Below, piece after piece: positions 31,136-45,542 of a DNA stretch of 64,000 nt. The stretch covers positions 3,279 through 67,278 of the forward strand of contig DATGWQ010000268.1 in assembly GCA_035299385.1 (NCBI GenBank), in the 5' to 3' direction. How positions within the stretch are numbered: position 1 is the first letter of the stretch; every line of letters starts with the position of its first letter. A model generated the notes under the pieces. It saw only the letters and a program-made list of their open reading frames with translations, did no database searches and was not told where the DNA came from. The position numbers and the translations under genes were made by a program. This DNA is from Bacteroidales bacterium. Lineage in GTDB: Bacteria > Bacteroidota > Bacteroidia > Bacteroidales > VadinHA17.

Positions 31136-33028
31136 TCACCTGTAAGGGATTAAGGAAGGCGGTCCTGACTCGAAGTTGTCAAATCTCGTGGGCTGCTGAC
31201 CCGTAACAGTCAGGTAATTTATACGTGAATATAATGGCGGGTCAGGAAAGAATCCCAGCCTGAGCTGAAATGTGTTGAAAACAAGATTGTTGTTGCGCAC
31301 TCTTATGCCGACACCTATCCCTGAAAGGTAATTTCCATGTGATAATACCTGGTTAGTTCCTGCTATGTATGAAAAGTCTGCAAAGCCGAAAAAGGCAAAC
31401 CTGAAACCGTAAATGTTCAGCGGACTGAATACCACCGTCTCAAGATTTAATGTTAGACGCTGTGTCCCCTTTATGGAGTCGTTTCTGAATCCGGAAAAGC
31501 CGTTATCCTCGATGTAGGTCAGTTTCTCGTCAGCATTCCTGTCAAAGCCCCTCGTATAATCCAAGTTTACAAAGTTCCTTATCATGCTGCCCGCAACAGG
31601 AATGAGATTCGTAAAATACTTAAACCTTGTATAAATAATACCCTGTTCCGTTCCGGGGCTCAGATATGATCCGAGGCCCGCTGCTGAATATAAGTAACCG
31701 GCCCGCGGGAACATTCCTGAAACCGAGAGTTCCGAGCCTGCATAATTCCTTGTTTTGAATTCATTCAGTTCCCTTCCCATGGTAACTTTTGCAACACCTC
31801 CGTATGGTATATCCTCTGTTCTCCCGTACTCATAAATGAGATTTGCCCTGTAGTAACGTTGTCTTGAAAGCGCCACTGATCCAAGGAAAAGCCTGTATTT
31901 CTGAAGCGAATGATAGGAATCCGGAGTTATCGACGGCCTCTGAAGTACATTGTTGTTTGTATATCTTGCACTCAGAACCAGTCGTGTAACATTCTCCCTG
32001 TCCAGGAGAAAAGATCTTCCTATCCAGTAGTCCTGGAGATTATACCGGAGTGGTTCGGGCACTTTAAGTGTATCGAGTGCATTAAATTTGTAAACATGCT
32101 CCACTGAGACACCTCCTGCATATTTCGTCTCGGAGCTTACGAATTTCCTGCTGAGGCGGATTCCGTATGAATCTTCCTCAAGATCATCATTATAAAACAT
32201 GTTCAGGTTCACAAATGAGCTTCCGAGATTGTCGATCAGGTAATGGATCCCGAAACCGGGAGAATTGGGTTTCTCACTGTCAAAAGGAACATTGATCCCA
32301 AGGTCATGTCCGAGGCCGAAAATATTATTGTCAAAGGCTGAGATTCTGCCGCTTTTCAGTCCTGAAGGCTCAAGATCACCGCCGAGTGAATAAACATCCT
32401 TCGTGATCACAATAACATCAACTTCGTTATTGCCAAGAGGAATTATTTTAATCCTGGCATCCTCGATATAAGGAAGGTCGCGGAGAAGCTTTTCATTTTC
32501 GCTGAGGAGAATGGGGGAAAGGGTGTCACCTGTCGAAAACAGAAGGTTTTTCCTGATGATGGATTCACTTGTGTTTATATGGGTCCTGTTAAGAAATTTC
32601 TGGCTCCTGTATGGTTCGTAATAATCCGGATTATTTATGTTCGATCCGAAAACAGGCAACCTGTTTACCCCGATATTCCTTATTTTCCTTCCTGAGAACT
32701 CGTCATATACAGCTTCACTTCTGGTATCTGTAACGGAATTGCTGCCTTTCCCGGGAGAAATTACAATAATTTCGTACAGCTTCCTTGTTATACTTCTTCT
32801 TAAAGCTTTTTCCTTGAGAGAATCGAGCAGTATCTCATGTTTTGTCCGGATCAGGTCACCTGAGGATATCAGGAGCATTCCCTGGATATAATGTCCGACA
32901 AGCGAAAAATTTTTCAAATCAGGATTCCTGACCGGCATTGGAGGTTTATCCTGGGGATATGCAGCAGAGCAAATCACCAGGCACATCAACAGAAAATATT
33001 TATATCTTCTGTATTCCGGCCGGTCCAT
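31136..33028 (-). CDS. Omp85/BamA-family outer-membrane protein (POTRA + beta-barrel)
   Basis: 630 aa with a signal peptide. POTRA-like segment IRNIGVNRL...IIRKNLLFSTGDTL...DVIVITKDV, then a long alternating-hydrophobic barrel region. Confidence 0.6.
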   Translation of the reverse strand: MDRPEYRRYKYFLLMCLVICSAAYPQDKPPMPVRNPDLKNFSLVGHYIQGMLLISSGDLIRTKHEILLDSLKEKALRRSITRKLYEIIVISPGKGSNSVTDTRSEAVYDEFSGRKIRNIGVNRLPVFGSNINNPDYYEPYRSQKFLNRTHINTSESIIRKNLLFSTGDTLSPILLSENEKLLRDLPYIEDARIKIIPLGNNEVDVIVITKDVYSLGGDLEPSGLKSGRISAFDNNIFGLGHDLGINVPFDSEKPNSPGFGIHYLIDNLGSSFVNLNMFYNDDLEEDSYGIRLSRKFVSSETKYAGGVSVEHVYKFNALDTLKVPEPLRYNLQDYWIGRSFLLDRENVTRLVLSARYTNNNVLQRPSITPDSYHSLQKYRLFLGSVALSRQRYYRANLIYEYGRTEDIPYGGVAKVTMGRELNEFKTRNYAGSELSVSGMFPRAGYLYSAAGLGSYLSPGTEQGIIYTRFKYFTNLIPVAGSMIRNFVNLDYTRGFDRNADEKLTYIEDNGFSGFRNDSIKGTQRLTLNLETVVFSPLNIYGFRFAFFGFADFSYIAGTNQVLSHGNYLSGIGVGIRVRNNNLVFNTFQLRLGFFPDPPLYSRINYLTVTGQQPTRFDNFESGPPSLIPYR

Positions 33029-33043
33029 CAGGTCCGTGTTTGG

Positions 33044-33739
33044 TTATCTGCCATTCAGGACGTCATCAGAATTAAACTGGAATCCGAGCCTTTTTCCGGT
33101 AACTACTTTTGAATGCTGGATTTTGGCTTCAGCCTGTCCGACAGAAGCAATCTTCACTGTGTCGTAAGGAGGAACCAGGAGATCAAACTCCATTGCATAC
33201 TGGATTGCAGTGGAAATTATTGTCTGCAGTGACTGTTTTGAGATCTCTTCACTTCCGTAATTTGTGAACAGCATACCCATTTGCCTTTTGCCTTCAACGA
33301 AGTATTGTTTCTCATGATTGATGAAAATCCTGGCTATAAGATACCCAAGGTCATCCACACGCGAATATCTGAATGAATCAGCAAGAAAGTTGTAAATGTT
33401 GATTATCCCCGAATAGGCATTAAATTTATTTTTCTGGATATAAGCCGTTTTCCATGCGGGATGTTCCCTGTCGAACTGGAATATATTCGAATGCATGCTG
33501 AACAGGAGAATGTCACCTGCCACTTTAATCTGGGCATCGAAATTGCTTCTGTCGGTATACTCAAGCTTTATCCTTGAATCGGTACCCTCAAGACTCGAGT
33601 TCACATCCTTTGCCATCGACTTCAGAACATCCTTGATGATCACGAATGAATCAAGGGTGTTGTCATAGACTTTTTGCTTGAGCAGGGATTTCTCTTTCAA
33701 CGTGGCAATGATTGCCATTTTTTTGTCGTCAAGCTGCAT
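33044..33739 (-). CDS. hypothetical cytoplasmic protein
   Basis: 231 aa with no signal peptide and no recognised motif. It lies between proS and the Omp85-like gene on the same strand. Confidence 0.55.
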   Translation of the reverse strand: MQLDDKKMAIIATLKEKSLLKQKVYDNTLDSFVIIKDVLKSMAKDVNSSLEGTDSRIKLEYTDRSNFDAQIKVAGDILLFSMHSNIFQFDREHPAWKTAYIQKNKFNAYSGIINIYNFLADSFRYSRVDDLGYLIARIFINHEKQYFVEGKRQMGMLFTNYGSEEISKQSLQTIISTAIQYAMEFDLLVPPYDTVKIASVGQAEAKIQHSKVVTGKRLGFQFNSDDVLNGR

Positions 33740-33796
33740 GGAGATCAGTTTTAGGTAATAAAGCTGTAAATATCTGAAAAAAAGAAACCGGATGTA

Positions 33797-35269
33797 CTAA
33801 TATGACCTCGCAAAAAGAACCCTTTTGCGTGATGGCTTTCCTGAATAGATGCATTTCCCTTCCTCCTCCGGACTGTCAAAAGGTATGCACCTGATGGTTG
33901 CTTTGGTCTCCTCCTTTATCTTTTCCTCGGTTTCGGCTGTACCATCCCAATGGGCCATAATGAAGCCTCCGGGCTGGTCAAGCACTTTCACAAAATCATC
34001 CCAGGTATCAACATAAAAGGTGTTTTCCTGCCTGAATTTCAAAGCTTTGTTATAGATCTCCTTCTGAATGTCCTCGAGCAGGTCTTTTACAATAAGAGCG
34101 ACTTTTTCAAGCGGGTAAATTTCTTTCTTAAGAGTATCGCGCCTGGCAATTTCAACTGTTTTGTTCTCAATATCACGCGGTCCTATTGCGATCCTTACAG
34201 GGACACCCTTAAGTTCGTAATCCGCAAATTTCCAGCCGGGGGTATTGGTGTCGCGATCGTCGTATTTTACTGATATGCCAATAGACTCAAGATCTTTCTT
34301 TATTCCTGCAGCGACCTCTGAAATCACAGACAGCTGCTCGATTTTCCTGAATATCGGAATTATGACTACCTGGATCGGTGCAAGCTTAGGAGGAAGTACC
34401 AGGCCATTATTATCCGAATGTGCCATTATAAGAGCTCCTATCAATCTTGTTGAAACACCCCATGATGTTGCCCATACGTATTCAAGTTTTCCGGTCTTAT
34501 CAGTAAACTGAACATCGAAAGCCTTTGCAAAATTTTGCCCCAGGAAATGGCTCGTTCCTGCCTGTAATGCTTTCCCGTCCTGCATCAGGGCCTCAATTGC
34601 ATAGGTGTCAAGCGCTCCCGCAAATCTTTCGTTTTCAGACTTGAAGCCTTTGATGACAGGAAGTGCCATTGAGTTCTCAGCAAAATCTGCATAAACATTT
34701 ATCATCTTCTGAGTTTCCTCCTGGGCCTCCTCTTTAGTGGCATGAGCGGTATGACCTTCCTGCCAGAGAAATTCGGCAGTTCGCAAAAAGAGCCTTGTCC
34801 TCATTTCCCATCTGACCACATTTGCCCATTGATTGATGAGTATTGGAAGATCCCTGTATGAATGTATCCAGCTCTTGTACGAATTCCAGATTATTGTCTC
34901 GGATGTCGGACGTATTATTAATTCCTCCTCCAGCTTTGACTCGGGGTCCACCATCACACCACCCTTCCCGTCATTTTTCAGCCTGTAGTGAGTTACAACG
35001 GCACATTCCTTGGCAAAACCCTCTACGTGAGCTGCTTCCTTGCTGAAAAAGGATTTCGGGATGAACAGGGGAAAATATGCATTCACATGGCCAGTTTCCT
35101 TGAATAACTTGTCTAGTCCGGCCTGGATCTTTTCCCATATGGCATAACCATAGGGTTTTATGACCATGCAACCCCTCACAGCAGAATTCTCTGCCAGGTC
35201 GGCCTTTATTACGAGATCGTTATACCATTGTGAATAATTTTCCTCCCTGTTTGTTAAAAACTTAGCCAT
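33797..35269 (-). CDS. proS: proline--tRNA ligase (archaeal/eukaryote-like type)
   Basis: 490 aa. The N-terminus [36 protein letters not shown], class-II aaRS motifs and a C-terminal Zn-like domain are typical of Bacteroidota ProRS. Confidence 0.95.
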
Positions 35270-35394
35270 TTTTCTGGTACGGTATTTGTTTATTTTGTAT
35301 TAAAAAATATAGATTGCAAAAAAAAAGGTATCCAAATAAGACCGTAAAAATAAAAAAAGTTCTGTATTTTGTTAAAAAGAAAGGTAGGTTCACC

Positions 35395-36489
35395 ATGAAA
35401 GCCAGATTGTACTCAGTCATTTTGTTTTTCTTAATGATTGCCGGATCTCCGGCCGTCTCGCAGCCTGCCGGTATAGTGGTTAACAATTATTACAGCGTAA
35501 ATGATTACCACTTTGCATCCAGGATCAACAGGTTCCACCGATCCTACTCTGAATTCAGCTATTATTCTCCTGTCTTCACTGACGAGTACTGGTACAGCTA
35601 CAGGCCGTACAGCTGGGGTGTCAGCATCTACGGAGGAGGTGGATTCGGATACGGATTTTCTTACGGCTACCCGGTTAATTATGGCTACGCCGGCGGTTAC
35701 TATGATCCATACTTTGGATATTCCTACTACTGGGGTTATCAGCCTGTTTATTACAGCTGGATAACTCCGATTGTCAATTACGGAAGCTGGAACAATCATG
35801 GTTACCGGTACGGTGACAGAGGGTATTACAGCAACAGGAATGTATATAATGTCACAAACAATTATTACAATTCATCTCCTTCATATTCACGAAGGTATGT
35901 CGAATCAGGGACCAGCAGTGCTTCAAGAAGGGAATCTTCAGCTGCAGGCAGTAACAACAGCAGAATAAACATCAACAACGACGGGGGGAGAAATGCTGCA
36001 AACGGGAACGGGCGCTATACAGGCAGTCGCACCAATATAAGCCGCAGAAATGGGGGGAATAACGGGAATAACAGGAATAGTGCAAACACAGGAAATAGCA
36101 ACAACAGGAATAACGCAAACCATTATGGAAATGTTAACAATGATGGAAATACGCCTGCTGTGAATAATCCTGATAATAACCGTAACAACAATAACAGGAA
36201 TAACAATTATGATCCGGGAAAAAACAATAACCGCGGAAATAACAGTAGCAACCAGGGGAGCACACGGTCCGACAGAGCAGTAAGAAGCAATTCGACTGGG
36301 AGCAGTCCGGCCATCCAGTCAAAACCAGCCCCATCATCAGTTTCGAGGTCATCTTCTTCCCGGTCTTCAGCTTCATCTTCACCAGCAAAATCATCAACAA
36401 CATCAACAAAATCATCTTCAACATCAACAAAATCATCGTCAACGTCGCGGACAACTTCATCATCAGCCGGAACATCACGAAGAAAATAA
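35395..36489 (+). CDS. secreted low-complexity protein (Tyr/Gly-rich core, Asn-rich tract, Ser/Thr tail)
   Basis: ATG at 35395 gives the signal peptide MKARLYSVILFFLMIAGSPAVSQ. Tyr accounts for 14 of 38 residues in GYGFSYGYPVNYGYAGGYYDPYFGYSYYWGYQPVYYSW. An NNRNNNNRNNN tract follows, then STKSSSTSTKSSS repeats. Confidence 0.65.
   Translation: MKARLYSVILFFLMIAGSPAVSQPAGIVVNNYYSVNDYHFASRINRFHRSYSEFSYYSPVFTDEYWYSYRPYSWGVSIYGGGGFGYGFSYGYPVNYGYAGGYYDPYFGYSYYWGYQPVYYSWITPIVNYGSWNNHGYRYGDRGYYSNRNVYNVTNNYYNSSPSYSRRYVESGTSSASRRESSAAGSNNSRININNDGGRNAANGNGRYTGSRTNISRRNGGNNGNNRNSANTGNSNNRNNANHYGNVNNDGNTPAVNNPDNNRNNNNRNNNYDPGKNNNRGNNSSNQGSTRSDRAVRSNSTGSSPAIQSKPAPSSVSRSSSSRSSASSSPAKSSTTSTKSSSTSTKSSSTSRTTSSSAGTSRRK
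36388..36450 (+). repeat. three in-frame 21-nt tandem repeats inside the first low-complexity gene
   Basis: The units are AAATCATCAACAACATCAACA, AAATCATCTTCAACATCAACA and AAATCATCGTCAACGTCGCGG. They encode K-S-S-x-T-S-T units. Confidence 0.9.
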
Positions 36490-36568
36490 AATCAGTTGAT
36501 TCTTAAAAGAAAGTTAAAATTCTCATCCATTTGGTATAGTATTTGATGAAAAATAAAAAACGAGGGGA

Positions 36569-37993
36569 ATGAAAATGAAAAGATTATCTTACATATCGCT
36601 TGCTACTCTTCTCACTTTAGGCGCCTGCAATTCGCGCCTGTACACGGGAGTCGAGTACGATGATGTCTACTTCAGCTCCAAGGATCAGCCTGTAGCCAGG
36701 GTAGACAGGGGTGCCGCTGATCAGCAATATTCATCAGACAATTACTACGATAATATATATGCTGCAGATACTCTTGTATCAGAGGAGTATTCAAATGCTG
36801 TTGACCTGGACAACCAGGCAGCCAGTAATAACGGTTACGAATATTACGATGATTTCGGATATTCATATGCCGGAAGACTGAGAAGGTTCTACGGAAATTA
36901 TTTTGATCCTTACTGGAGAGATCCTTTCTACAGCTATGGTTATCCGTTCGGATATGGTATGGGATATCCGTACAGCTACGGTTTTGGATACCCGTACAGC
37001 TATTGGGATCCCTACTATGGATATGACTACTACAATCCATACTTCGGTTACGGTTACGGACCATCTTACGGTTTCGGATATGGTTATGGCATGTATTCGG
37101 GCTTCTACGGCGGCTGGGGTGGTTACTACGGCGGATATTACGGCGGTGGATGGCCTTATGGGGGCGGCTACGGAAGAATATACGACGACCGCAACAGCGT
37201 GGCTTATGGCAGGAGGGAAAGGCCGAGTACTCTTTCATCCAGGTGGAATTCCGGAACAGGCATAACCGGATCAGCAAGAAGAGACACCTACTCAGGCACA
37301 ACTTCCACTGCATCGAGAAGAACAGGAACTCCTTCTTCACCGGCATCTGCCAGCTCCAGGAGGGATAACGCTACTGTATCAGCAAGGCAGACAGACAGGA
37401 CACAGGTTGACAGGACCATTCAGAGCCAGTCAAAAGGTTCCGTAAATTCAACATCAAGAAGTGCATCTTCAAGGCCTGAATACAACAGCTCAGGCAGATC
37501 ATATACTCCAAGCTACAACAACCCGCGCATGCCCACACGTCCTTCCTATAATAACAGCAGGGCAGTTGAAAACTCAGGTGTGCGGTCGCGCGAAGACAAT
37601 AATCAGCCGGTAATGCGCAGCCCCTCGAGCCAGCCTTCAAACCAGGGGACTTACCAGGCTCCTTCGAGAAGGTCAGAATCGTCGTCCTCATACTCAGCTC
37701 CCGCAAGCCGCTCCAACACATACAGGAGCGTTGAACCCTCAAGAAGCTCCAGGTCTGCTGACGTATACAGGAGCCCGAGCTATTCTGCCCCGGCTTCAAG
37801 AAGCTATTCACCATCCAATAGCGGAAGCTCTTACTCAGGTGGGAGCAGCAGATCATACAGCAGCGGATCCTCCTATAGCGGTGGTTCAAGCAGTGGCGGA
37901 TCATCTTACAGCGGAGGCGGATCTTCGGGCAGCTCATCAGGTGGCTCATCAAGATCATCCTCGTCAGGCGGTTCTTCTTCAGGAAGGCGATAA
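36569..37993 (+). CDS. lipoprotein with Tyr/Gly/Pro-rich core and long Ser/Arg-rich tail
   Basis: Lipobox LLTLGAC. Core GYPFGYGMGYPYSYGFGYPYSYWDPYYGYDYYNPYFGYGYG...GGWGGYYGGYYGGGW. About 250 aa of S/R/P/T tail with a duplicated SYSAPASRS and GSSYSGGSS repeats. Confidence 0.65.
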   Translation: MKMKRLSYISLATLLTLGACNSRLYTGVEYDDVYFSSKDQPVARVDRGAADQQYSSDNYYDNIYAADTLVSEEYSNAVDLDNQAASNNGYEYYDDFGYSYAGRLRRFYGNYFDPYWRDPFYSYGYPFGYGMGYPYSYGFGYPYSYWDPYYGYDYYNPYFGYGYGPSYGFGYGYGMYSGFYGGWGGYYGGYYGGGWPYGGGYGRIYDDRNSVAYGRRERPSTLSSRWNSGTGITGSARRDTYSGTTSTASRRTGTPSSPASASSRRDNATVSARQTDRTQVDRTIQSQSKGSVNSTSRSASSRPEYNSSGRSYTPSYNNPRMPTRPSYNNSRAVENSGVRSREDNNQPVMRSPSSQPSNQGTYQAPSRRSESSSSYSAPASRSNTYRSVEPSRSSRSADVYRSPSYSAPASRSYSPSNSGSSYSGGSSRSYSSGSSYSGGSSSGGSSYSGGGSSGSSSGGSSRSSSSGGSSSGRR

Positions 37994-38042
37994 AGCTGTA
38001 ATATCCTCTGATTGAGGGAAATTCTAACAAAAAAATCAAATT

Positions 38043-39524
38043 ATGAAAAGGATCAGTTTCGTAATATTAACCTTCCTTTGTGCTTCCGCAGGCATATTCG
38101 CCCAGAATGTGGATGATGCACTGCGGTATTCACAGATATTTTACGGTGGCACTTCGAGGTTTACTTCCATGGGAGGTGCGTTCACTGCGATAGGAGGAGA
38201 TATCTCATCCCTCAGCCAGAACCCGGCAGGGCTGGGAGTATTCAGATCATCTGAAATAAGCATCAGCCCGCAACTATCCCATACAAAAACAGATGCCGGA
38301 TTTTTCGGAAGATCCTCCAACTACGTGTATAATTTTGGCCTTAACCAGGCAGGCATCGTCAGCAACCTCATCTCAAATGCAAGCGGCCTGATTTCTTTAA
38401 ATGCCGGTTATTCCTTCAATAAGACCAATAACCTGAACCAGTCCGTAAGAATACAGGGAATAAATACGGGAAGCTCAATGGCGGATTACTGGGCCCGCTC
38501 AAGCCAGGGCACACACTATAAAGACCTTCTTGACGCAGCCGGAATAGCATATGATGCCTGGGTGATTGACACAATAACAGGCTCGGGAGGCAGATCATAC
38601 GGCACGGTATTCAATAATTATGGTGACAACCCTCCTTCAGTCTACGGACAGAATGTTCGCAGGCTTATTACCGATGAGGGCTTTACCGGTGAACATGCTC
38701 TTTCGATAGGTGGAAACTATGAAAACAAAATATATTTCGGTGCGACACTTGGCATCAACAAAATAAAGTACACAGGCCATTTTGAACATCTCGAATCAAC
38801 AGATGCAGCGCTGCCTTCCGAATTTAAGAACTTTACATACACAGATCATTTTGAGAACAGCGGAACAGGTTATTCAATAAAGATCGGTGCCATATTCCGC
38901 CCGGTTGAAATGCTGCGACTGGGAATTGCATTCCATTCGCCGACCTGGTATAAGATCAATGAGTATTTCTATGAAGATATCTCCTCAAATTTCACAGGTG
39001 GAGGCAAATACAATTTCTCAGTAGACCCGCAAAGATACCAGTATGCCCTTGCAACTCCTTTCAGGGTCCTGGCGGGTGCAGCCGTTCAGATCGGTAAAAT
39101 GGGACTGCTGAGCGCTGATTACGAATTTGTCGATTACAGCACTGCAAGATTCTCCGAAACGGGAGACGGTTATGATTACAGCGAAAAGAACGACATTATT
39201 AAGAGTACTCTCAAGCCAGTTAATAATTTGAGGTTTGGAGGAGAGCTCAGGCTTGACAAGCTGTATCTGCGCGGTGGTTACGGATATTATGGCAAGGCAT
39301 TCCGCAGCGGTGAGGACAACCAGGATCTTCAGTATAACGCCATATCTGCGGGTATAGGTTTCCGTGAACAGAGGGTATCTGTTGATTTTGGCTTCACCAA
39401 CTTTAACTACAAACAGAAATACGTGCTTTATCCTCTCGATGTAAATGCCAGTTCCGGCATTGCAGGGCTTACTACCGACAGGAACATGTTTACCCTTACC
39501 GTAGGGTATAAGTTTGGTTATTGA
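38043..39524 (+). CDS. FadL/TodX/PorV-like outer-membrane beta-barrel protein
   Basis: 493 aa with a signal peptide. N-terminal hatch-like motif RFTSMGGAFTAIGGDISSLSQNPAGLG and C-terminal aromatic end YKFGY. Confidence 0.7.
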   Translation: MKRISFVILTFLCASAGIFAQNVDDALRYSQIFYGGTSRFTSMGGAFTAIGGDISSLSQNPAGLGVFRSSEISISPQLSHTKTDAGFFGRSSNYVYNFGLNQAGIVSNLISNASGLISLNAGYSFNKTNNLNQSVRIQGINTGSSMADYWARSSQGTHYKDLLDAAGIAYDAWVIDTITGSGGRSYGTVFNNYGDNPPSVYGQNVRRLITDEGFTGEHALSIGGNYENKIYFGATLGINKIKYTGHFEHLESTDAALPSEFKNFTYTDHFENSGTGYSIKIGAIFRPVEMLRLGIAFHSPTWYKINEYFYEDISSNFTGGGKYNFSVDPQRYQYALATPFRVLAGAAVQIGKMGLLSADYEFVDYSTARFSETGDGYDYSEKNDIIKSTLKPVNNLRFGGELRLDKLYLRGGYGYYGKAFRSGEDNQDLQYNAISAGIGFREQRVSVDFGFTNFNYKQKYVLYPLDVNASSGIAGLTTDRNMFTLTVGYKFGY

Positions 39525-39547
39525 TTTTTCTGAATATTGTTATAAAG

Positions 39548-39578
39548 TCCCCTTGCTGGTGCAGTGAGGGGATTTTTT
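39548..39578 (+). terminator. rho-independent terminator closing the 35395-39524 operon
   Basis: Stem TCCCCT (39548-39553) / AGGGGA (39567-39572) followed by TTTTTT (39573-39578). Confidence 0.7.
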
Positions 39579-40178
39579 CTACAAATATCCACCCGCTTCA
39601 GGTCCCATATTAAATATGAGATCTATTATGCTCAGGTTGGAAGTGAATTCATTTCCGAAAACCTGGAGATATCTTCTGTTTATGAACTCCTGACGTTTTT
39701 CAGGAGTGAGGCTGTATCGAAAGTCATTCGTCTGCCGGACTTCAGGAGCATATTCTGTTGTATTGCTGATCTCCCTTTCAATTTTCAGCATCCTTAACAC
39801 CTTCCTGAGCAATAAATCGTTAAGATCGAAAAGGCATTCATGCTTCCAGAGTATGATTTGTTCCAACTCCTCAAAGTAAAAATCAAAAAATGGTGAATTG
39901 CCGTAAGCCGCCCTGATTGCCCTCAGGTGGACCTGCTGCCATCTTTTAGAATAGTCAATGCGAACTTCACGTATGGGGACTTTTCTCCTGCTTCCTTCAT
40001 AGACCGGGACCGGGAGTAACAGCGGCCCGCCGGATGAAAGGATATAACAGCGGTTCCTGTAGGTCTGCTTGATATAATTCTCTTTGGCTTCAATCAGGAC
40101 TGCCCGGGAACTTTTTATTAATGAAAAATACTGGACCGGCGGCAGGTATGCTGTTGAAAGGAGTATTTTCTCCTGCAT
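39579..40178 (-). CDS. WbqC-like family protein
   Basis: 199 aa. The N-terminal pattern LSTAYLPPVQYF...ENYIKQTYRNRC is one I associate with the WbqC-like family. It starts 5 nt after the larB stop on the same strand. Confidence 0.7.
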   Translation of the reverse strand: MQEKILLSTAYLPPVQYFSLIKSSRAVLIEAKENYIKQTYRNRCYILSSGGPLLLPVPVYEGSRRKVPIREVRIDYSKRWQQVHLRAIRAAYGNSPFFDFYFEELEQIILWKHECLFDLNDLLLRKVLRMLKIEREISNTTEYAPEVRQTNDFRYSLTPEKRQEFINRRYLQVFGNEFTSNLSIIDLIFNMGPEAGGYL

Positions 40179-40183
40179 CTGGG

Positions 40184-40933
40184 TTATTTCATTTTATTGA
40201 TCATGCTTGCGCTGAAGCCTGCGCCAAAGCCGTTATCGATATTCACGACAGTCACGCCTGCAGAACAGCTGGTCAGCATGGCAAGCAAAGCTGAAATCCC
40301 TCCGAAATTTGCACCGTAACCAACGCTTGTCGGCACCGCAATCACAGGTTTGTCAACAAGGCCACCGACAACGCTTGCAAGGGCTCCTTCCATGCCTGCA
40401 ATAACAACAATTACCCTGCATTGCCTTATTTCGGCGAGCTTGTCAACGAGCCGGTGAATACCTGCAACTCCCGCATCATAGATCCTGAGAACGTTGTTGC
40501 CCAGCAGCTCTGCTGTTATCGCTGCTTCCTCTGCCACGGGCATGTCGGATGTGCCGGCAGTGATAACTGCAATTCTTGTTTCCGGGCAATCAGGCTTTTT
40601 CTTCTGGACAGCTATGATCCGTGCAACAGGGTAATATACAGCATCAGCTGCGATCTCTTTTACAGCTTCAAACATCGTGTTGTCTGCGCGTGTGCCGATC
40701 ACATTATTTTCCCTCGTGATCATCACCCGGAATATCTCCCTGACCTGCGCAACAGTTTTGCCTGCACAGTAAACAATTTCAGGGTAACCTGTACGAATCT
40801 CGCGATGGTGATCAATCTTGGCAAACCCAAGATCGCTGTACGGGAAATTCTTCAGTATTTCGAGTGCATCGTTTACGCTCCTTTTGCCGTCCCTGACATC
40901 TGACAGCAGTTTTTCAACTTCTTTGATATTCAT
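40184..40933 (-). CDS. larB: nickel-pincer cofactor biosynthesis protein LarB (NaAD carboxylase/hydrolase, PurE-like)
   Basis: 249 aa with FAKIDHHREIRTGYPEIVYCAGKT and a PurE-like C-terminal half ITAGTSDMPVAEEA...AGMEGALASVVGG. Confidence 0.88.
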   Translation of the reverse strand: MNIKEVEKLLSDVRDGKRSVNDALEILKNFPYSDLGFAKIDHHREIRTGYPEIVYCAGKTVAQVREIFRVMITRENNVIGTRADNTMFEAVKEIAADAVYYPVARIIAVQKKKPDCPETRIAVITAGTSDMPVAEEAAITAELLGNNVLRIYDAGVAGIHRLVDKLAEIRQCRVIVVIAGMEGALASVVGGLVDKPVIAVPTSVGYGANFGGISALLAMLTSCSAGVTVVNIDNGFGAGFSASMINKMK

Positions 40934-41733
40934 GAGTCGTGGTTTTGAGGGTTCAGGCTTCCTGTCCTGTAGCCTTCAAGGTCCAAAGATATATACCTGA
41001 ACCCTGATTTCTTCATTCCCGTGATTATCTGTTCCCTGATTTCCTTCTGCATTATTCTTTCCAGGTACCCGGGAGTGCATTCTATGCGTGCAACATCGCC
41101 ATGCATTCTGACCCTGGTGCCCGGGAATCCGAGCTCAAAGAACAGGTTCTCTGCAGCTTCGATCATCCTTAGCATTGATTCGCTTATGACCGTATTATAA
41201 GGTATCCTTGTAAGCAGGCAAGCCATAGCCGGGCGGTCCCAGGTGCTCAGACCAGCCTGTTTGCTGAACTGCCTTATTTCAGCTTTGGTTAGTCCCGCTT
41301 CCAGTAGTGGGCTTCGAATTCCAAGTTCATTGAGAGCTTTCAATCCAGGTCTGAACTCACCTGTGTCATCGGCGTTTGTTCCGTCAGCTACATACCTGAG
41401 GTTGTTCTTTTTTCCAAAATCAATGAGATCTGTAAACAAGTTCTTCTTGCACAGGTAACATCTTTGCGGGGGATTGTTCCTGATCATTTCAGGGAATTCG
41501 ATATCTATGATCGTATGCTTAATCCCGTGCCGGGAAGTGAATTCAACTGCATCTGATATCTCTCTCACAGGCGTATAAGCTGTTCTGATCGTAGCTGCGA
41601 TGACCTCGATCTTTTTAAGCGAATGTGCCCTTTGAAGCAGGAAAGTGCTGTCGACCCCGCCTGAAAACGCCAGGACAAATGAGCCAAGATCAGCCAGTAT
41701 CCTGTCCAGCCTTTTTGATTTTTCCTCTATCAT
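40930..41733 (-). CDS. larE: ATP-dependent sulfur transferase LarE (PP-loop)
   Basis: 267 aa with PP-loop AFSGGVDS and Cys residues at RCYLCK and MACLL. It overlaps larB by 4 nt. Confidence 0.88.
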   Translation of the reverse strand: MIEEKSKRLDRILADLGSFVLAFSGGVDSTFLLQRAHSLKKIEVIAATIRTAYTPVREISDAVEFTSRHGIKHTIIDIEFPEMIRNNPPQRCYLCKKNLFTDLIDFGKKNNLRYVADGTNADDTGEFRPGLKALNELGIRSPLLEAGLTKAEIRQFSKQAGLSTWDRPAMACLLTRIPYNTVISESMLRMIEAAENLFFELGFPGTRVRMHGDVARIECTPGYLERIMQKEIREQIITGMKKSGFRYISLDLEGYRTGSLNPQNHDS

Positions 41734-41736
41734 TCG

Positions 41737-42912
41737 TCAACCTTTTCCCGTTAACCGTGACATTATCCTGGAATACACCTCCTTGAGAGGTATCCCTTTT
41801 TCGTCGGCGATCCTTTTGCAATCGTCGTACTCGGGTTTAAATGATACCTCTTTCCCTTCATGGAACGATCTCTTGACACTCACCTTGCCAAATTCGGTTT
41901 CTATTGTTTCAAATTTCCTTTCAAGAGTATCCTTTTTGAAAACAAATGTCCTTATTCCAAGCGTGGTTGATTCAGAGAAGATTACCTTTTTCAATGCATC
42001 CGTCAAACCTGTTTCACATATTACTTTAAGCATGATGCCCGGCCTGCCTTTTTTCATGATGATGTTTGACAGAAAAACATCTGCAGCGCCTGCTGCAAAC
42101 AATCTCGAGGACAGGTGATCGAAAAATTCAGGGTTCATGTCATCGATGTTGCATTCGAGCATCACAGCATCATGCCCCTTATCGGCCTGTCCGGCAGGTT
42201 CACAGAGAAATACCCTGAGAAGATTCGGAATATCGGGATTCTGTTTCTGACCTACGCCATAGCCTGTCCTGATCACTTTCAGTTGACGGCCATTGCTGAA
42301 GTCCGTTCCAAGTGTTGCAACAATGGCAGCTCCTGTGGGCGTCGTTGCCTCAAAATTCACACCTCCCTGCCTCACAGGTAACCCGCTTATGATTTCCGCT
42401 GTTGCAGGGGCAGGCACTGGAAGTTTTCCATGCTCGCATTTCACGAAACCGCTTCCCAGTTCCACGAAAGGGACATACACTTCATCCACACCCAGCTCAT
42501 TGAAGCATATTGCCGCGCCAACAACATCGATAATAGAGTCAATGGCTCCAACTTCATGAAAATGGACTTGATCGACTGGAATACCATGGACCTTCGCTTC
42601 AGCTACTGCAATTTTGCTGAAAATCTTAAGGCTCAGCTCTTTAGTCCTGTCATCAAGGGATGATGAATTTACAATATTCTCAATATCAGACAGATGCCTG
42701 TGCGCGTGCTCATGCCTCGTCTGCTTCACAGTTACCTTTGTGCCGGAGATGCCATGCCTCTGGTCTCTTTCTGCTAACAGTTCCCATCCTTCCAGGTTAA
42801 GCTTGCCGAGTTCGCCTGTGAGCCAGGTTTTTTCGATTCCCAGGTCGATCATTGCACCCAGGTTCATATCTCCGCTGATCCCGGAAAAGCAGTCATAATG
42901 AAGTATTTTCAT
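41737..42912 (-). CDS. larC: nickel insertion protein LarC (P2TMN nickel chelatase)
   Basis: 391 aa, N-terminus MKILHYDCFSGISGDMNLGAMIDLG, single unfused-frame ORF. It ends 3 nt upstream of larE. Confidence 0.9.
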   Translation of the reverse strand: MKILHYDCFSGISGDMNLGAMIDLGIEKTWLTGELGKLNLEGWELLAERDQRHGISGTKVTVKQTRHEHAHRHLSDIENIVNSSSLDDRTKELSLKIFSKIAVAEAKVHGIPVDQVHFHEVGAIDSIIDVVGAAICFNELGVDEVYVPFVELGSGFVKCEHGKLPVPAPATAEIISGLPVRQGGVNFEATTPTGAAIVATLGTDFSNGRQLKVIRTGYGVGQKQNPDIPNLLRVFLCEPAGQADKGHDAVMLECNIDDMNPEFFDHLSSRLFAAGAADVFLSNIIMKKGRPGIMLKVICETGLTDALKKVIFSESTTLGIRTFVFKKDTLERKFETIETEFGKVSVKRSFHEGKEVSFKPEYDDCKRIADEKGIPLKEVYSRIMSRLTGKG

Positions 42913-43051
42913 GTCAATAGAAAAATTCAGATATCAATTTCGAACCGAGCCACGAAGATACTATTTACGATCCGATACTTAATAATAATAAAAAAAATCG
43001 TATTTTCGGCGCTTGTCCGGTCGTGGGTTAACACCTGAAAAATCACATAAA

Positions 43052-43972
43052 ATGAAAAGAAGAGATTTTCTTAAAACTTCACTCGGAGGCAGCATTGCAG
43101 CAGGAGCTGCATTGAAGCTGGGCGGTTACGGGAAAATGTGGAAATCAGAAGCAGCTTACGCCAAATATGATATGGTTGCTGTTATGGGGGGAAACCCTGA
43201 TGCCATGTTCGATCTTGGTATTCAGGAATTAGGCGGGATGGGAGCATTTGTGACGAAAGGCCAGAAAGTCCTCATAAAACCAAATATCGGGTGGGATGTG
43301 ATCCCGGAGCTCGCTTCCAATACCAATCCTGCCCTTGTAAAAAGAATTATCGAACATTGTTTCAAAGCAGGTGCCAAAGAGGTGTATGTCTTCGATCATA
43401 CCATCGATAACTGGATTAACTGCTACAAAAATTCCGGCATAGAGAAAGCAGCAAAAAGCGCCGGAGCTAAAGTTGTACCCGGCCATTCGGAAAATTATTA
43501 TCACGAAATATCCATCCCCGGAGGCGTACAGCTTCAGAAAGCAAAAGTGCATGAGCTTCTGCTCGAAACTGACGTATTCATCAATGTGCCGATTCTGAAA
43601 GATCATAATTCCACCAGGATGACCGCTTCCCTGAAGAATATGATGGGGGTTATCTGGGACAGGGGATACTGGCATTCGAACAACCTTGACCAGTGCATAG
43701 CCGATTATGCATTATACGAGAAAAAACCGGCGCTGAACATTATCGACTGTTATAATGTAAAGGTGAAGCATGGACCACAGGGTGTTTCAAAGGAAGACAA
43801 TGTACTTATGAAATCCCAGATAATCTCCACCGACTGGGTTGCCGCAGACACAGCCGCTGCAAGAATGCTCAAGGTCCCTGTAGAAAAAATAGGATATATT
43901 CCCATAGCTCATAAAATGGGCCTCGGAAACATGAATATAGACGGTCTGAATATTAAAAGGATAAAAATGTAG
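43052..43972 (+). CDS. Tat-exported DUF362-family protein
   Basis: The ATG at 43052 gives the twin-arginine signal MKRRDFLKTSLGGSIAAGAA. VLIKPNIGW and ILKDHNSTRMTASLKNMMG motifs match my recollection of DUF362. The track start at 43013 is TTG. Confidence 0.75.
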   Translation: MKRRDFLKTSLGGSIAAGAALKLGGYGKMWKSEAAYAKYDMVAVMGGNPDAMFDLGIQELGGMGAFVTKGQKVLIKPNIGWDVIPELASNTNPALVKRIIEHCFKAGAKEVYVFDHTIDNWINCYKNSGIEKAAKSAGAKVVPGHSENYYHEISIPGGVQLQKAKVHELLLETDVFINVPILKDHNSTRMTASLKNMMGVIWDRGYWHSNNLDQCIADYALYEKKPALNIIDCYNVKVKHGPQGVSKEDNVLMKSQIISTDWVAADTAAARMLKVPVEKIGYIPIAHKMGLGNMNIDGLNIKRIKM

Positions 43973-43976
43973 CCTG

Positions 43977-45542
43977 ATGAAATCACATCAGCTGAGGACT
44001 TTGCGTATCATCATCGCAGGATTATTTTTTATCAGTGTTTTCTTTGTTTTTGCTGATTTCAGATCATTAATCCCGGCAAAATATACTGAACTCCTTCTCT
44101 CGCTGCAGTTCATCCCTTCTGCACTGAAGTTTTTCAATGCAGGCACTCTCGTTGCAGGAGGATTCATAACCGTAATGGTCCTCACAGTCTTTACGGGACG
44201 TACTTACTGCTCCTTCCTTTGTCCGCTGGGGATCGGACAGGATATCTTCAGCCGGATCGGGGGCAAATTCCGCAGGAAATTCCGCCGGTACGGATACAAG
44301 CGGCCACATACGGTTCTGCGGTACATCATACTTGCCGCAACACTTGTGGTAACAATGGTATGGGGTATCTACATGCTTACGCTTCTTGATCCCTACAGTG
44401 TTTTCGGCAGGTTCATGACCTTTCTTGCAAAACCTGCTGTAATATGGATAAATAATATTTTTGCAGGGCTTCTTGGCAGATTCGACATCTATACACTCAG
44501 CCATACACCGGTGAAACCATTTGCACTGGTGATGTACACGCTGCCGGTTGCCTTTTTCCTCCTGGTAGGAGCGATGTCGCTGACAAAAGGAAGATTCTAC
44601 TGCAACACAATTTGTCCTGTCGGCACTTTTCTCGGACTGCTTTCCAAAGTATCGATCCTGAGGATTAAAATGAACGAGTCCGCATGCACAAGGTGCGGAC
44701 GCTGCTCGATGCGTTGCAAATCATCATGTATCGATTTTCTCAGGCACGATGTTGACGTTTCCAGGTGCGTGGGCTGCTTCAACTGTATCAATGAATGTCA
44801 CGAACATGCCATCTCGTATGGAATTGTGAACCTGAAGAAGAAAGATAAAGCCGGACACGTCACAGACGAAAGCAGGAGGAAAGCTATAGCAGGATCAATC
44901 CTGTTTCTGCTGGGAATACGACAGGCGGCTGCACAGGAAACGAAAGCGCCCAAGCCAAAAAAGCCGTCGACTGTAAAGGAAGAAAAAACTAATCCTGTCT
45001 GTCCACCTGGTAGCGGCTCCATTGCTGATCTGAATAAAAAATGCACCGCCTGTTCGCTTTGTATCAATGCCTGTCCGAACGGTGTGCTTCAACCGGCTTT
45101 TAAAGAATATGGGTATACAGGCCTGATGCAACCGGTAATGAATTACCATAAAAGCTTCTGTACTTACAAATGCAGTATCTGCACTGAAGTATGTCCCACT
45201 GATGCACTGAAGCCACTGGTGCTTGAAGCAAAACAGCTTACCCAGCTTGGGAAAGTGAAATTCATCAGGGACAACTGTGTTGTTAAGACTGAGAAGACTG
45301 CCTGCGGCGCCTGCTCAGAGAGCTGCCCGACCAAAGCTGTGTACATGGTTCCCTTTGAAGGCAACCTGCTGATCCCTGAGACAAACGACGAAATATGCAT
45401 AGGGTGCGGGCATTGTGAGTATGCATGTCCGATGGTGCCCTACAAGGCAATTTACGTTGACGGGAATGCCATACATACGGCTGCCAAAAAGCCCGAAAAC
45501 GAGAAAGCAGATATAGAGACTCCAGTCGATTTCCCATTCTAA
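43977..45542 (+). CDS. NapH/NosR/MauN-like integral-membrane polyferredoxin
   Basis: 521 aa with several TM helices carrying two CX3CP motifs (CSFLCP, CNTICP). It also has six CxxCxxCxxxC(P) cluster motifs, for example CTACSLCINACP and CIGCGHCEYACP. Confidence 0.8.
   Translation: MKSHQLRTLRIIIAGLFFISVFFVFADFRSLIPAKYTELLLSLQFIPSALKFFNAGTLVAGGFITVMVLTVFTGRTYCSFLCPLGIGQDIFSRIGGKFRRKFRRYGYKRPHTVLRYIILAATLVVTMVWGIYMLTLLDPYSVFGRFMTFLAKPAVIWINNIFAGLLGRFDIYTLSHTPVKPFALVMYTLPVAFFLLVGAMSLTKGRFYCNTICPVGTFLGLLSKVSILRIKMNESACTRCGRCSMRCKSSCIDFLRHDVDVSRCVGCFNCINECHEHAISYGIVNLKKKDKAGHVTDESRRKAIAGSILFLLGIRQAAAQETKAPKPKKPSTVKEEKTNPVCPPGSGSIADLNKKCTACSLCINACPNGVLQPAFKEYGYTGLMQPVMNYHKSFCTYKCSICTEVCPTDALKPLVLEAKQLTQLGKVKFIRDNCVVKTEKTACGACSESCPTKAVYMVPFEGNLLIPETNDEICIGCGHCEYACPMVPYKAIYVDGNAIHTAAKKPENEKADIETPVDFPF

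Follow-up and report, generated by a model that had tools for sequence, protein, structure and literature searches.

The conserved core of the locus described here is a pair of adjacent genes, one coding for a predicted lipoprotein of a previously undescribed kind (X) and the other for an outer membrane barrel predicted to have the FadL fold. The locus is situated in a 64,000-nucleotide stretch (the window, positions 3,279 to 67,278 of contig DATGWQ010000268.1, assembly GCA_035299385.1) of a Bacteroidales bacterium and includes three open reading frames (ORFs) on the plus strand: gene 1 (35395-36489, 364 aa), gene 2, which codes for X (36569-37993, 474 aa), and gene 3, which codes for the barrel (38043-39524, 493 aa). 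These coordinates, the gaps of 79 nt (genes 1 and 2) and 49 nt (genes 2 and 3), and the compositions and motifs quoted in an earlier note made from the sequence alone (14 Tyr in 38 aa, an Asn/Arg tract, LTLGAC, two copies of SYSAPASRS, the PYFGY cores and GGA...NPAGL) were reproduced. That note treated the three genes as one set; gene 2 and the barrel gene do form a conserved core, but gene 1, an accessory duplicate, is absent from 20 of 65 loci.

FadL-type barrels of Bacteroidota have recently been shown to be protein-binding scaffolds (PorV, BamG) and not merely lipid channels, and the present locus represents a third large family. A FadL-type barrel accompanied by a dedicated lipoprotein is an established kind of arrangement in this phylum, so what is new here is the partner, X. 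We tentatively propose, at slightly below an even chance, that the two proteins would form a dedicated complex producing a sticky, disordered envelope layer docked on the barrel.

Conservation of the X-barrel pair

At least 535 GTDB species-representative genomes encode a relative of the barrel, and the best 80 were examined (individual loci are cited below as L001 and the like). X is located directly upstream of the barrel gene and on the same strand in all 71 related loci whose upstream flank extends over 1.6 kb or more, typically at a distance of 77-85 nt. Since the whole 14 kb region 31136-45542 is collinear in the close clade, synteny in the 80 closest genomes was discounted as proof of functional linkage and replaced by eight more distant loci. 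The distant contexts were drawn from seven further barrel representatives and two divergent gene 2 homologues, and in every one of them an X-type gene lies ahead of the barrel gene in the same orientation. All 8 loci looked up for other barrel representatives (L084-L090 included) show the pairing; the identity of these representatives to the window barrel ranges from 31 to 56%, with a median of 35%. In L088, X was missed by automatic gene calling at an assembly gap, yet it is readable in frame by eye. The prolyl-tRNA synthetase gene proS stays divergently upstream in the distant loci, while the other neighbours change (MazG, FG-GAP, TPR, LpxK, peptidase M49, arsenical permease, efflux pump and others).

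JGI metagenome contigs were scanned with the RFH motif, which is common to gene 1 and X and is described below. The barrel gene was present in all of the 31 loci whose downstream sequence extended over 3.7 kb or more, and no orphan RFH proteins were seen among the 80 best metagenome matches. Linkage of the low-complexity genes to the barrel across relatives, which the earlier note had named as a check, was found in every locus of the three sets (71/71, 8/8 and 31/31); in other words, all 110 relatives with readable surroundings (71 genome, 8 distant and 31 metagenome loci) carry an X partner.

All matches come from metagenome-assembled genomes (MAGs) or metagenomes of Bacteroidales/Bacteroidota and are annotated as "hypothetical protein" or "outer membrane protein transport protein". 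The pair appears to belong to the core gene set of a large, mostly uncultured Bacteroidales lineage inhabiting sediments, peat, digesters and similar habitats. One contig, L001 (JBLNAO010000259.1), is labelled as a Chloroflexota MAG; its barrel is 76% identical to that of the window and its gene 2 and proS have the Bacteroidales arrangement, so this contig is probably mis-binned.

Coding status of the low-complexity frames

In the same 80 loci gene 1 was matched in 48, gene 2 in 74 and gene 3 in 80, and in none was there a match to either of the two long antisense ORFs that lie within gene 2, namely 36672-37346 and 37371-38039 (for the second, the query began at its first ATG and thus covered 37371-37958). 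Discrete invariant motifs, going beyond shared composition, align in 38 gene 2 and 35 gene 1 homologues from related genomes. Comparison of gene 2 with three relatives (about 65% nucleotide identity) has shown 62 of the 68 alignment gaps to be multiples of three. A frame artefact or non-coding low-complexity DNA is ruled out by the conserved motifs, the multiple-of-three indels and the unconserved antisense ORFs, and the frames of genes 1 and 2 are, as judged from these alignments, truly coding. The earlier description of two disordered low-complexity proteins holds insofar as the gene 1 product is predicted to be disordered, but the proteins are not purely compositional, as they carry near-invariant short motifs.

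Tandem DNA repeats are located in the gene 1 tail (36386-36443, 21 nt x 2.8) and in the Tyr/Gly core of gene 2 (36937-37002, 24 nt x 2.8); such short repeats show slippage or duplication to be the way in which the low-complexity regions expand. Publicly available gene calls for homologues of genes 1 and 2 are frequently shortened by frameshifts (P0405, P0442, P0446, P0456, P0458), and runs of N occur in the assembled tails of these homologues (e.g., L010 and L088). Mis-assembly and under-annotation of these low-complexity genes are systematic. "RFH-only" proteins of 100-200 aa found in public databases were considered as a separate family and rejected, as they correspond to frameshift-truncated gene calls.

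Architecture of lipoprotein X

The gene 2 product starts with a signal sequence and a lipobox, LTLGAC, in which Cys20 is the lipidated residue, making it a predicted signal peptidase II substrate. The lipobox reads LGSC, LASC, LSSC or LGAC, in agreement with L-x-[GAS]-C, in 62 of 64 X homologues, and Cys20 is invariant. There are two in-frame ATGs at the start of the gene (36569-36577, MKMKRL); as the homologues begin with MKAL or MKTL, the true start may be the second one, at 36575. The layout of X is conserved over the 64 homologues: the lipobox is followed by a post-Cys peptide, an acidic stretch, the RF motif, a Tyr/Gly core, a cationic tail and an Arg-Arg end.

The post-Cys peptide, C-x-S-x-LYTG-x-EYDD-x-YY including Cys20 (36626-36676, plus strand), is near-invariant in the alignment of 38 sequences: C20, D31, D32 and Y34 are invariant, and S22, L24, Y25, G27, E29 and Y30 are conserved in at least 90%. 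By analogy with known lipoprotein partners of barrels discussed below, this peptide is a candidate barrel-docking segment. The acidic N-terminal region of the window X (aa 21-100) has a net charge of -12, which is also the median over the 64 homologues, and contains YYDNIYAADTLVS-EY with an invariant D-T-L. It is followed by the conserved motif YSYxGRLRRFYGNYFDPYWRDPFY.

The D-T-L of X (D67-T68-L69, 36767-36775) is invariant in 38 homologues, and the barrel has a D176-T177-I178 at 38568-38576, of which D176 and T177 are invariant in 17 homologues. Both fit D-[ST]-[AILVMT], the general O-glycosylation sequon of Bacteroidota, and are possible glycosylation sites.

The core of the window X (aa 101-205), comprising the RF motif and the Tyr/Gly part, is the one quoted in the earlier note as GYPFGYGMGYPYSY... 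and contains 31% Y and 29% G, with NPYFGY at aa 156. Across the 64 homologues the core is 81-113 aa long (about 96), with a median of 32% Y and 21% G. The tail (aa 206-474 in the window) contains 33% S and 13% R, has a net charge of +22 and terminates with SGRR; the median net charge in the homologues is +23 (range +17 to +33), and the C-terminus is Arg-Arg, in 50 of 64 cases as GRR.

The tail varies greatly in length and sequence outside its conserved motifs. These include three islands, V-x-YGRRERPSTLSSRWN, the almost invariant RPEYNS-x-NRTYTPSYSNPRMSTRPSYNNSR and YSVPSRRS. In consensus form, the conserved elements of X include YGRRERPS and YTPSYSNPR..RPSYNNSR; SYSAPASRS occurs twice in the window protein, at aa 374 and 404. 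In the 38-sequence alignment, the near-invariant tail motif of the window protein extends over aa 302-331 (RPEYNSxxRSYTPSYNNPRMPTRPSYNNSR, 37472-37561, plus strand), and Y305, R310, Y312, P314, Y316, P319, R324, P325, Y327, N328, N329 and R331 are invariant. It is recognisable also in distant X proteins, as YTPSYSQPRSNTRPSYN in L090 and YTPSYSRP in L088.

Neither X nor the gene 1 product has a match in Pfam or NCBIfam at E<=1, the C-terminal sorting domain of T9SS, the type IX secretion system, included, and database searches found no named or characterised homologue of either protein. The statement of the earlier note that these proteins belong to no characterised family is consistent with these searches. 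The literature on Tyr/Gly-rich or disordered envelope lipoproteins in Bacteroidota yielded a Tyr-rich BamA loop only and nothing on the X family.

In proteins of the FUS type, a Tyr-rich segment beside an Arg-rich segment with Gly/Ser spacers drives self-association. X resembles the low-complexity/RGG regions of the eukaryotic FUS family and Gly/Tyr-rich structural proteins in having a Tyr-rich, Gly/Ser-spaced segment together with an Arg-rich one. There is no homology, however, X being bacterial, lipid-anchored and exported, and the resemblance is compositional only.

X lacks the canonical surface export signal

None of 62 X homologues has an acidic residue at positions +1 to +6 after the lipidated Cys, and the same is true for the distant X proteins that were read. 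The lipoprotein export signal (LES) of Bacteroidota is defined by at least two acidic residues within the six positions following the lipidated Cys (PMC12578637), so by this rule X has no LES-dependent surface export signal. Secretion and export of a surface matrix, as suggested in the earlier note, are not borne out by the 62 homologues, all of them devoid of the signal. To our knowledge, no barrel of the FadL fold acts as a protein exporter.

X could instead remain in the inner leaflet of the outer membrane, under the barrel, as a periplasmic tether or spacer whose basic tail binds peptidoglycan or anionic lipids, giving a gel or a link between the outer membrane and the cell wall in a phylum that lacks Braun's lipoprotein; the gene 1 product would then be a soluble periplasmic co-polymer. 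We regard this as unlikely, though the likeliest of the alternatives: besides the export signal missing in 62 of 62 homologues (rule from PMC12578637), it would account for the cationic tails (+17 to +33) with their conserved Arg-Arg C-terminus, for a gene 1 product that has a signal peptidase I signal only and no recognisable secretion tag, and for a gene set which, as an envelope housekeeping function would lead one to expect, occurs in no fewer than 535 species-representative genomes and always next to proS. However, the periplasm is a place where long unfolded polypeptides are usually broken down, and high variability of the tail in length and sequence is more typical of exposed proteins. 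A periplasmic location would also leave the conserved long loop of the barrel (between strands 3 and 4, in close relatives) without a partner, and the known protein-binding barrels of the FadL type bind their partners outside.

The barrel is a distinct member of the FadL superfamily

The gene 3 product consists of a signal peptide (aa 1-20), a hatch (aa 21-70) with the N60-P61-A62 motif, and the barrel proper with a long loop at aa 142-202. The hatch motif in the window is MGGAFTAIGG...NPAGL. N60, P61 and A62 show no variation in 17 sequences and are conserved in at least 90% of 161 barrel representatives; the hatch is the most conserved block over these 161 proteins, where the same level is reached by Q21, R28, S30, G36, R39, G51, D53 and G63. 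The distance between the mature N-terminus and the NPA motif is 39 aa, compared to 32 in E. coli FadL by our own count. The loop 142-202, between predicted strands 3 and 4, is rich in invariant residues among close relatives and, from its position, is presumably extracellular.

Q21 (38103-38105) is the predicted mature N-terminus after signal peptidase I cleavage. Likewise, in gene 1 homologues the predicted cleavage (...KA|Q...) leaves an N-terminal Gln. Both fit the "Q-rule" of pyroglutamate N-termini in Bacteroidetes.

The Pfam family Toluene_X (PF03349) matches the C-terminal half of the barrel only, below threshold (25.5 bits against a gathering score of 29.7, E 5.8e-6), although many close homologues carry PF03349 in their precomputed annotation, and there is a weak match to UPF0164. 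In NCBIfam, PorV_fam gives a weak N-terminal match of 28.3 bits (cut-off 90) and PorV2 one of 23.2 (cut-off 325). Searching all PDB chains, including 9hiv, 9hjm and 9n2d, with the barrel (phmmer) and with its 17-sequence profile (hmmsearch) found nothing relevant at E<=10.

The AlphaFold2 (AF2) model of the barrel has a mean predicted local distance difference test score (pLDDT) of 62 and a predicted template modelling score of 0.67; the strands are at 70-80, while the N-terminal 65 residues and the loop 153-201 are below 50. The top 24 Foldseek matches of this model are all FadL-family chains (E 8e-14 to 7e-7, template modelling (TM) scores 0.43-0.64, 10-14% identity). The best one is BamG of the Bacteroides thetaiotaomicron β-barrel assembly machinery (BAM) complex (9hiv_F, E 8e-14), followed by TodX, P. 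aeruginosa FadL, the F. johnsoniae BAM (9n2d_B), the P. gingivalis BAM (9hjm_F) and E. coli FadL. No PorV-containing entries are present among the 50 best matches. The model assigns the barrel to the FadL fold of about 14 strands, the exact strand number not being reliably readable from it.

The label FadL/PorV-like used in the earlier note is therefore justified by fold for its first half; the second half fails, with 28 against 90 bits and no PorV among the 50 best folds, and the nearer relatives are BamG, TodX and FadL. An exhaustive profile search over 1.84 billion cluster representatives (50% identity) returned 6065 barrel proteins at E<=1e-3 and 2684 clusters at E<=1e-30. The barrel is a distinct large family within the FadL superfamily and, by the available tests, stands outside the PorV and BamG families. 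Its assignment as a BamG orthologue was rejected at the sequence level, as no PDB chain was matched at E<=10 and the fold alone is shared (12-13% identity). T9SS cargo served by a PorV was rejected as well, with no C-terminal sorting domain in the neighbouring products and PorV models far below their cut-offs.

The relation to FadL, TodX and TbuX (PF03349) includes the same fold (TM about 0.5-0.6, E 1e-9 to 1e-13), the NPA hatch and the conserved N-terminal plug. In a rival interpretation, the barrel would import a hydrophobic or aromatic compound and the aromatic-rich X would be an accessory lipoprotein that captures the substrate, following the SusCD-like logic of Bacteroidota, in which a barrel has a binding lipoprotein. 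The fold matches to TodX, FadL and P. aeruginosa FadL are about as good as that to BamG, the weak Toluene_X match and the precomputed PF03349 annotation of many homologues point the same way, and so do the invariant NPA motif and the hatch as the best-conserved block; in F. johnsoniae, a FadL homologue adjoins a lipoprotein gene (PMC12045153). On the other hand, the barrel stays below the Pfam gathering score (25.5 vs 29.7 bits), its family profile finds no FadL, TodX or BamG chain at E=10, and it is always paired with an apparently disordered lipoprotein. An apparently unfolded polycationic protein of about 450 aa is unlike any known substrate-binding lipoprotein, and catabolic or fatty-acid genes, whether for lipids or aromatics, are linked to the barrel in none of the examined loci. 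We consider uptake of this kind improbable.

Proposed function of the X-barrel complex

The preferred interpretation, a dedicated complex of the barrel and X, is built on precedents from the same phylum. The BAM complex of Bacteroidota contains a FadL-fold barrel, BamG, which binds the N-terminal region and the lipid anchor of the surface lipoprotein BamH, and the paralogous pair BamG2-BamH2 (Bt1785-Bt1786) is encoded by a putative operon (PMC12578637, PMC12611786). PorV is another FadL relative that binds proteins, namely T9SS cargo (PMC12578637, PMC12611786). A FadL homologue with an adjacent lipoprotein is also known in F. johnsoniae (PMC12045153), and BamA of Bacteroidota has a flexible or disordered loop rich in Tyr, Gly and Asn (PMC12578637).

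The window pair is similar to BamG-BamH in that a FadL-fold barrel (14-stranded in BamG), acting there as a protein scaffold, stands beside a partner lipoprotein, and BamG2-BamH2 are co-encoded too. In contrast, the sequences have no detectable similarity, and the window barrel, which is not known to be linked to BamA, is longer by some 90 aa. BamH folds and is a surface protein with an export signal, whereas X is apparently unfolded, has no such signal and shows no similarity to BamH. PorV/PorQ (NF033709) are also FadL-related barrels of Bacteroidota, they bind C-terminal domains of their cargo, have GGA...NPAGL in common with the window barrel and account for its weak N-terminal match; the differences are the score (28 vs 90 bits), the lack of PorV among the 50 best folds and the lack of a T9SS C-terminal domain in genes 1 and 2.

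By analogy, the barrel would be the membrane partner of X and not a fatty-acid importer, just as BamG is for BamH and PorV for T9SS cargo. The conserved N-terminal peptide of X, situated beside the lipid anchor, would dock on the barrel as BamH does on BamG, and the barrel lumen or a lateral opening may give the unfolded, lipidated chain access to the outer face. The remaining residues of X, about 400, would stay unfolded and act through their composition: X may self-associate via Tyr "stickers" contacting Arg "stickers" between Gly/Ser spacers, forming a layer at the outer membrane, and its tail of +20 to +30 may bind polyanions or glycans such as lipopolysaccharide phosphates, peptidoglycan carboxylates, capsule or nucleic acid. 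The product of gene 1, which has no anchor, would co-assemble with X.

We lean slightly towards a layer that faces outward rather than into the periplasm, because PorV and BamG bind their partners extracellularly and because a long, presumably extracellular loop is kept among close relatives. The hypervariable tails of X point outward as well.

Several points weigh against this proposal. The contact between X and the barrel is presumed from co-encoding and precedent, and the ideas of stickers, spacers and polyanion binding come from composition alone. Lack of the acidic export signal in X is contrary to ordinary surface exposure. The strongly conserved hatch would be equally expected of a genuine FadL-type small-molecule channel. 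The barrel model is of moderate confidence (pLDDT 62), with the hatch and the long loop below 50. Synteny within the close clade is weak evidence for functional linkage because the whole region is collinear there, so it is the distant loci that carry weight, and in those proS, too, stays adjacent.

A bolder version would make the FadL-fold barrel both conduit and anchor for a completely unfolded lipoprotein, the polypeptide passing via the lumen and the acyl chains via the lateral opening; the Tyr-rich/Arg-rich sticker-spacer proteins would then build a condensate-like coat on the outer membrane. A fully unfolded cargo is plausibly the only kind able to thread a 14-strand barrel; even so, we see this version as a long shot. 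If true, it would mean a new job for the FadL fold, a surface route that needs no export signal and the first bacterial envelope counterpart of FUS-type assemblies, in a large anaerobic group of Bacteroidales.

If X and the barrel form a complex, they would provide a tractable case of an intrinsically disordered, possibly self-associating core component of the envelope, and this might bear on the movement of lipoproteins across the outer membrane of Bacteroidota, or along it. A barrel that is merely a transporter with an odd neighbour would be of modest interest. To an envelope biologist, both the composition of X and its strict pairing with the barrel would come as a surprise, and the hypotheses lend themselves to direct testing.

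Gene 1 as an unanchored duplicate of X

The gene 1 product has an ordinary signal peptide (signal peptidase I, aa 1-22), no lipid anchor and no recognisable secretion tag. Its conserved part is the RFH module, NNYY-DY-x-[AS]SRI[NR]RF[HY]...YWY..P..WG.SIY (35473-35640, plus strand), defined by alignments and hhalign. In the window protein, it covers approximately aa 27-82 and reads VVNNYY..DYxFASRINRFHRSY..YYSPVFTDEYWYSYRPYSWGVSIYGG. Across the homologues, it takes the form VVNNYYDDYDYYFSSRINRFHRSY-AFDYYSPVFTD-YWYNY-P-SWG-SIYGG, followed by a second block, YDPY-GSSYYWGYDPFYYN. R43, I44, R46, F47 and H48 are invariant in 35 sequences.

The Tyr-rich core of gene 1 (aa 23-160, 24% Y) has DPYFGY at aa 104, and the 14 Tyr residues in 38 aa are found in its GYGFSY...VYYSW stretch. 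The tail (aa 161-364) contains 25% S, 22% N and 11% R, has a net charge of +22 and terminates with RRK. The homologues are 268-521 aa long, with tails of variable length and a net charge of +11 to +38, mostly ending in RR, RRR or RRK. In the AF2 model, which was built on a shallow alignment of 16 sequences, the mean pLDDT is 43 and there is no secondary structure past the signal peptide; the protein is predicted to be disordered, with the shallowness of that alignment to be kept in mind.

Alignment of the gene 1 and gene 2 families by hhalign gave a probability of 99.5% (E 2.4e-22) over a stretch from the signal peptides through the NNYY-DY-SR(I/L)-RF block. In the distant barrel loci, a single upstream gene (451-541 aa) combines the features of genes 1 and 2. 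This single-copy X has the lipobox, (E)YDD(I/L/V)YY, the acidic stretch and V(I/T)NNYY...DY-Y(A/S)SRIRRF(H/Y)...YWY..P..WG-SIY, then an aromatic core with varying mixes of Tyr, Trp, His and Gly, and a Ser/Asn/Arg/Pro/Thr tail ending in GRR, RRR or GGR. The RFH module is common to gene 1, gene 2 and the single-copy X of distant relatives. Paralogy of genes 1 and 2, which the earlier note had suggested from the shared PYFGY core, is confirmed at the level of sequence profiles by this alignment and by the single-copy relatives that unite both feature sets.

Of the 65 related loci with sufficient flank, 45 contain gene 1. The other 20 lack it, among them L001-L003, L007 and L017, and so do even the three closest relatives; in these loci proS directly abuts gene 2. 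Gene 1 is thus accessory, and the paralogue has been lost, or gained, repeatedly. As distant loci carry a single X with the features of both genes, gene 1 is an X duplicate that lost the lipid anchor and the acidic head. The simplest history would start from an ancestral X-barrel pair, with X duplicated in the window lineage into an anchored copy (gene 2) and an unanchored one (gene 1).

An anchored and an unanchored paralogue recall CsgB and CsgA, and curli (CsgA/CsgB/CsgG) and Fap (FapC/FapB/FapF) systems likewise have paralogous unfolded secreted subunits encoded together with an outer membrane channel. Genes 1 and 2 could accordingly be imagined as major and nucleator subunits of an amyloid-like or dityrosine-cross-linked matrix exported through the barrel, which would agree with the resemblance of their aromatic/Gly segments to amyloid-prone low-complexity segments and with an unfolded cargo, as in the AF2 model of gene 1. 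We hold this to be very unlikely. Most of the lineages sampled at a distance have a single X and 20 of 65 close loci have no gene 1, so a two-subunit fibre is not the conserved function and the second subunit, unlike those of curli and Fap, is dispensable in many lineages. The barrel has another fold than the curli and Fap channels, and genes 1 and 2 contain short slippage repeats only, with no regular repeat units found. No homologues of CsgG, CsgE, CsgF or FapF were found in the neighbourhood, nor any other accessory genes of these systems. The dityrosine cross-linking considered in the earlier note receives no support from any neighbouring gene, as there are no peroxidase or oxidase neighbours, and the anaerobic-looking host (lar genes, polyferredoxins) makes oxidative cross-linking of Tyr unlikely.

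Locus boundaries and neighbouring genes

The three genes are followed by an intrinsic terminator (39544-39578, plus strand), a 15-bp hairpin (39544-39576) with U6. The hairpin has a folding free energy of -20.5 kcal/mol (z -4.65), and 0 of 200 shuffled sequences fold equally well. It was overlooked by a simple terminator scan and recovered by folding analysis. No terminator-like sites were found by the terminator scan in the two intergenic gaps, which agrees with the operon-like, terminator-closed layout proposed earlier. The Rfam scan of the locus gave no match. Scanning for sigma-70 promoters found 16 sites with 14.9 expected, and no clean Bacteroidetes-type promoter motif could be seen by eye.

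The upstream boundary of the locus is formed by the divergent proS (33797-35269, minus strand). Downstream, the terminator sits between the barrel gene and a convergent WbqC-like gene, which is followed by larB, larE and larC. The WbqC-like gene is convergent with the barrel gene in 73 of 80 close loci and adjoins it in most of the distant loci read; it is absent from L084, L089 and L090 and located upstream in L085. larB, larE and larC are responsible for nickel-pincer cofactor synthesis, and larA is not nearby. Beyond the lar genes there are a polyferredoxin gene and a DUF362-like one, whose homologues in L083 and L088 carry PF04015 while the window protein matches the Npun_F2552 family of NCBIfam. 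The genes from the WbqC-like one onwards lie at 39579-42912 (minus strand) and 43052-45542 (plus strand). The lar genes, the DUF362-like gene and the polyferredoxins suggest that the host lineage is anaerobic.

On the other side of proS, the minus-strand gene 31136-33028 codes for a predicted outer membrane protein of 630 aa, which belongs to no Pfam family and has a weak match to TIGR03303, the BamA model (E 3e-5, residues 152-253). This protein may be a divergent member of the Omp85 type, and in 59 of 80 related genomes its gene keeps a collinear order with the locus. Located between this gene and proS, directly downstream of the latter, 33044-33739 (minus strand) codes for a 231-aa protein with no Pfam or NCBIfam family. 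A gene for a protein of 228-237 aa with no Pfam match on record occupies the same position on the proS side in L081, L085, L086, L088 and L089; the agreement in position and size suggests a conserved proS-linked gene.

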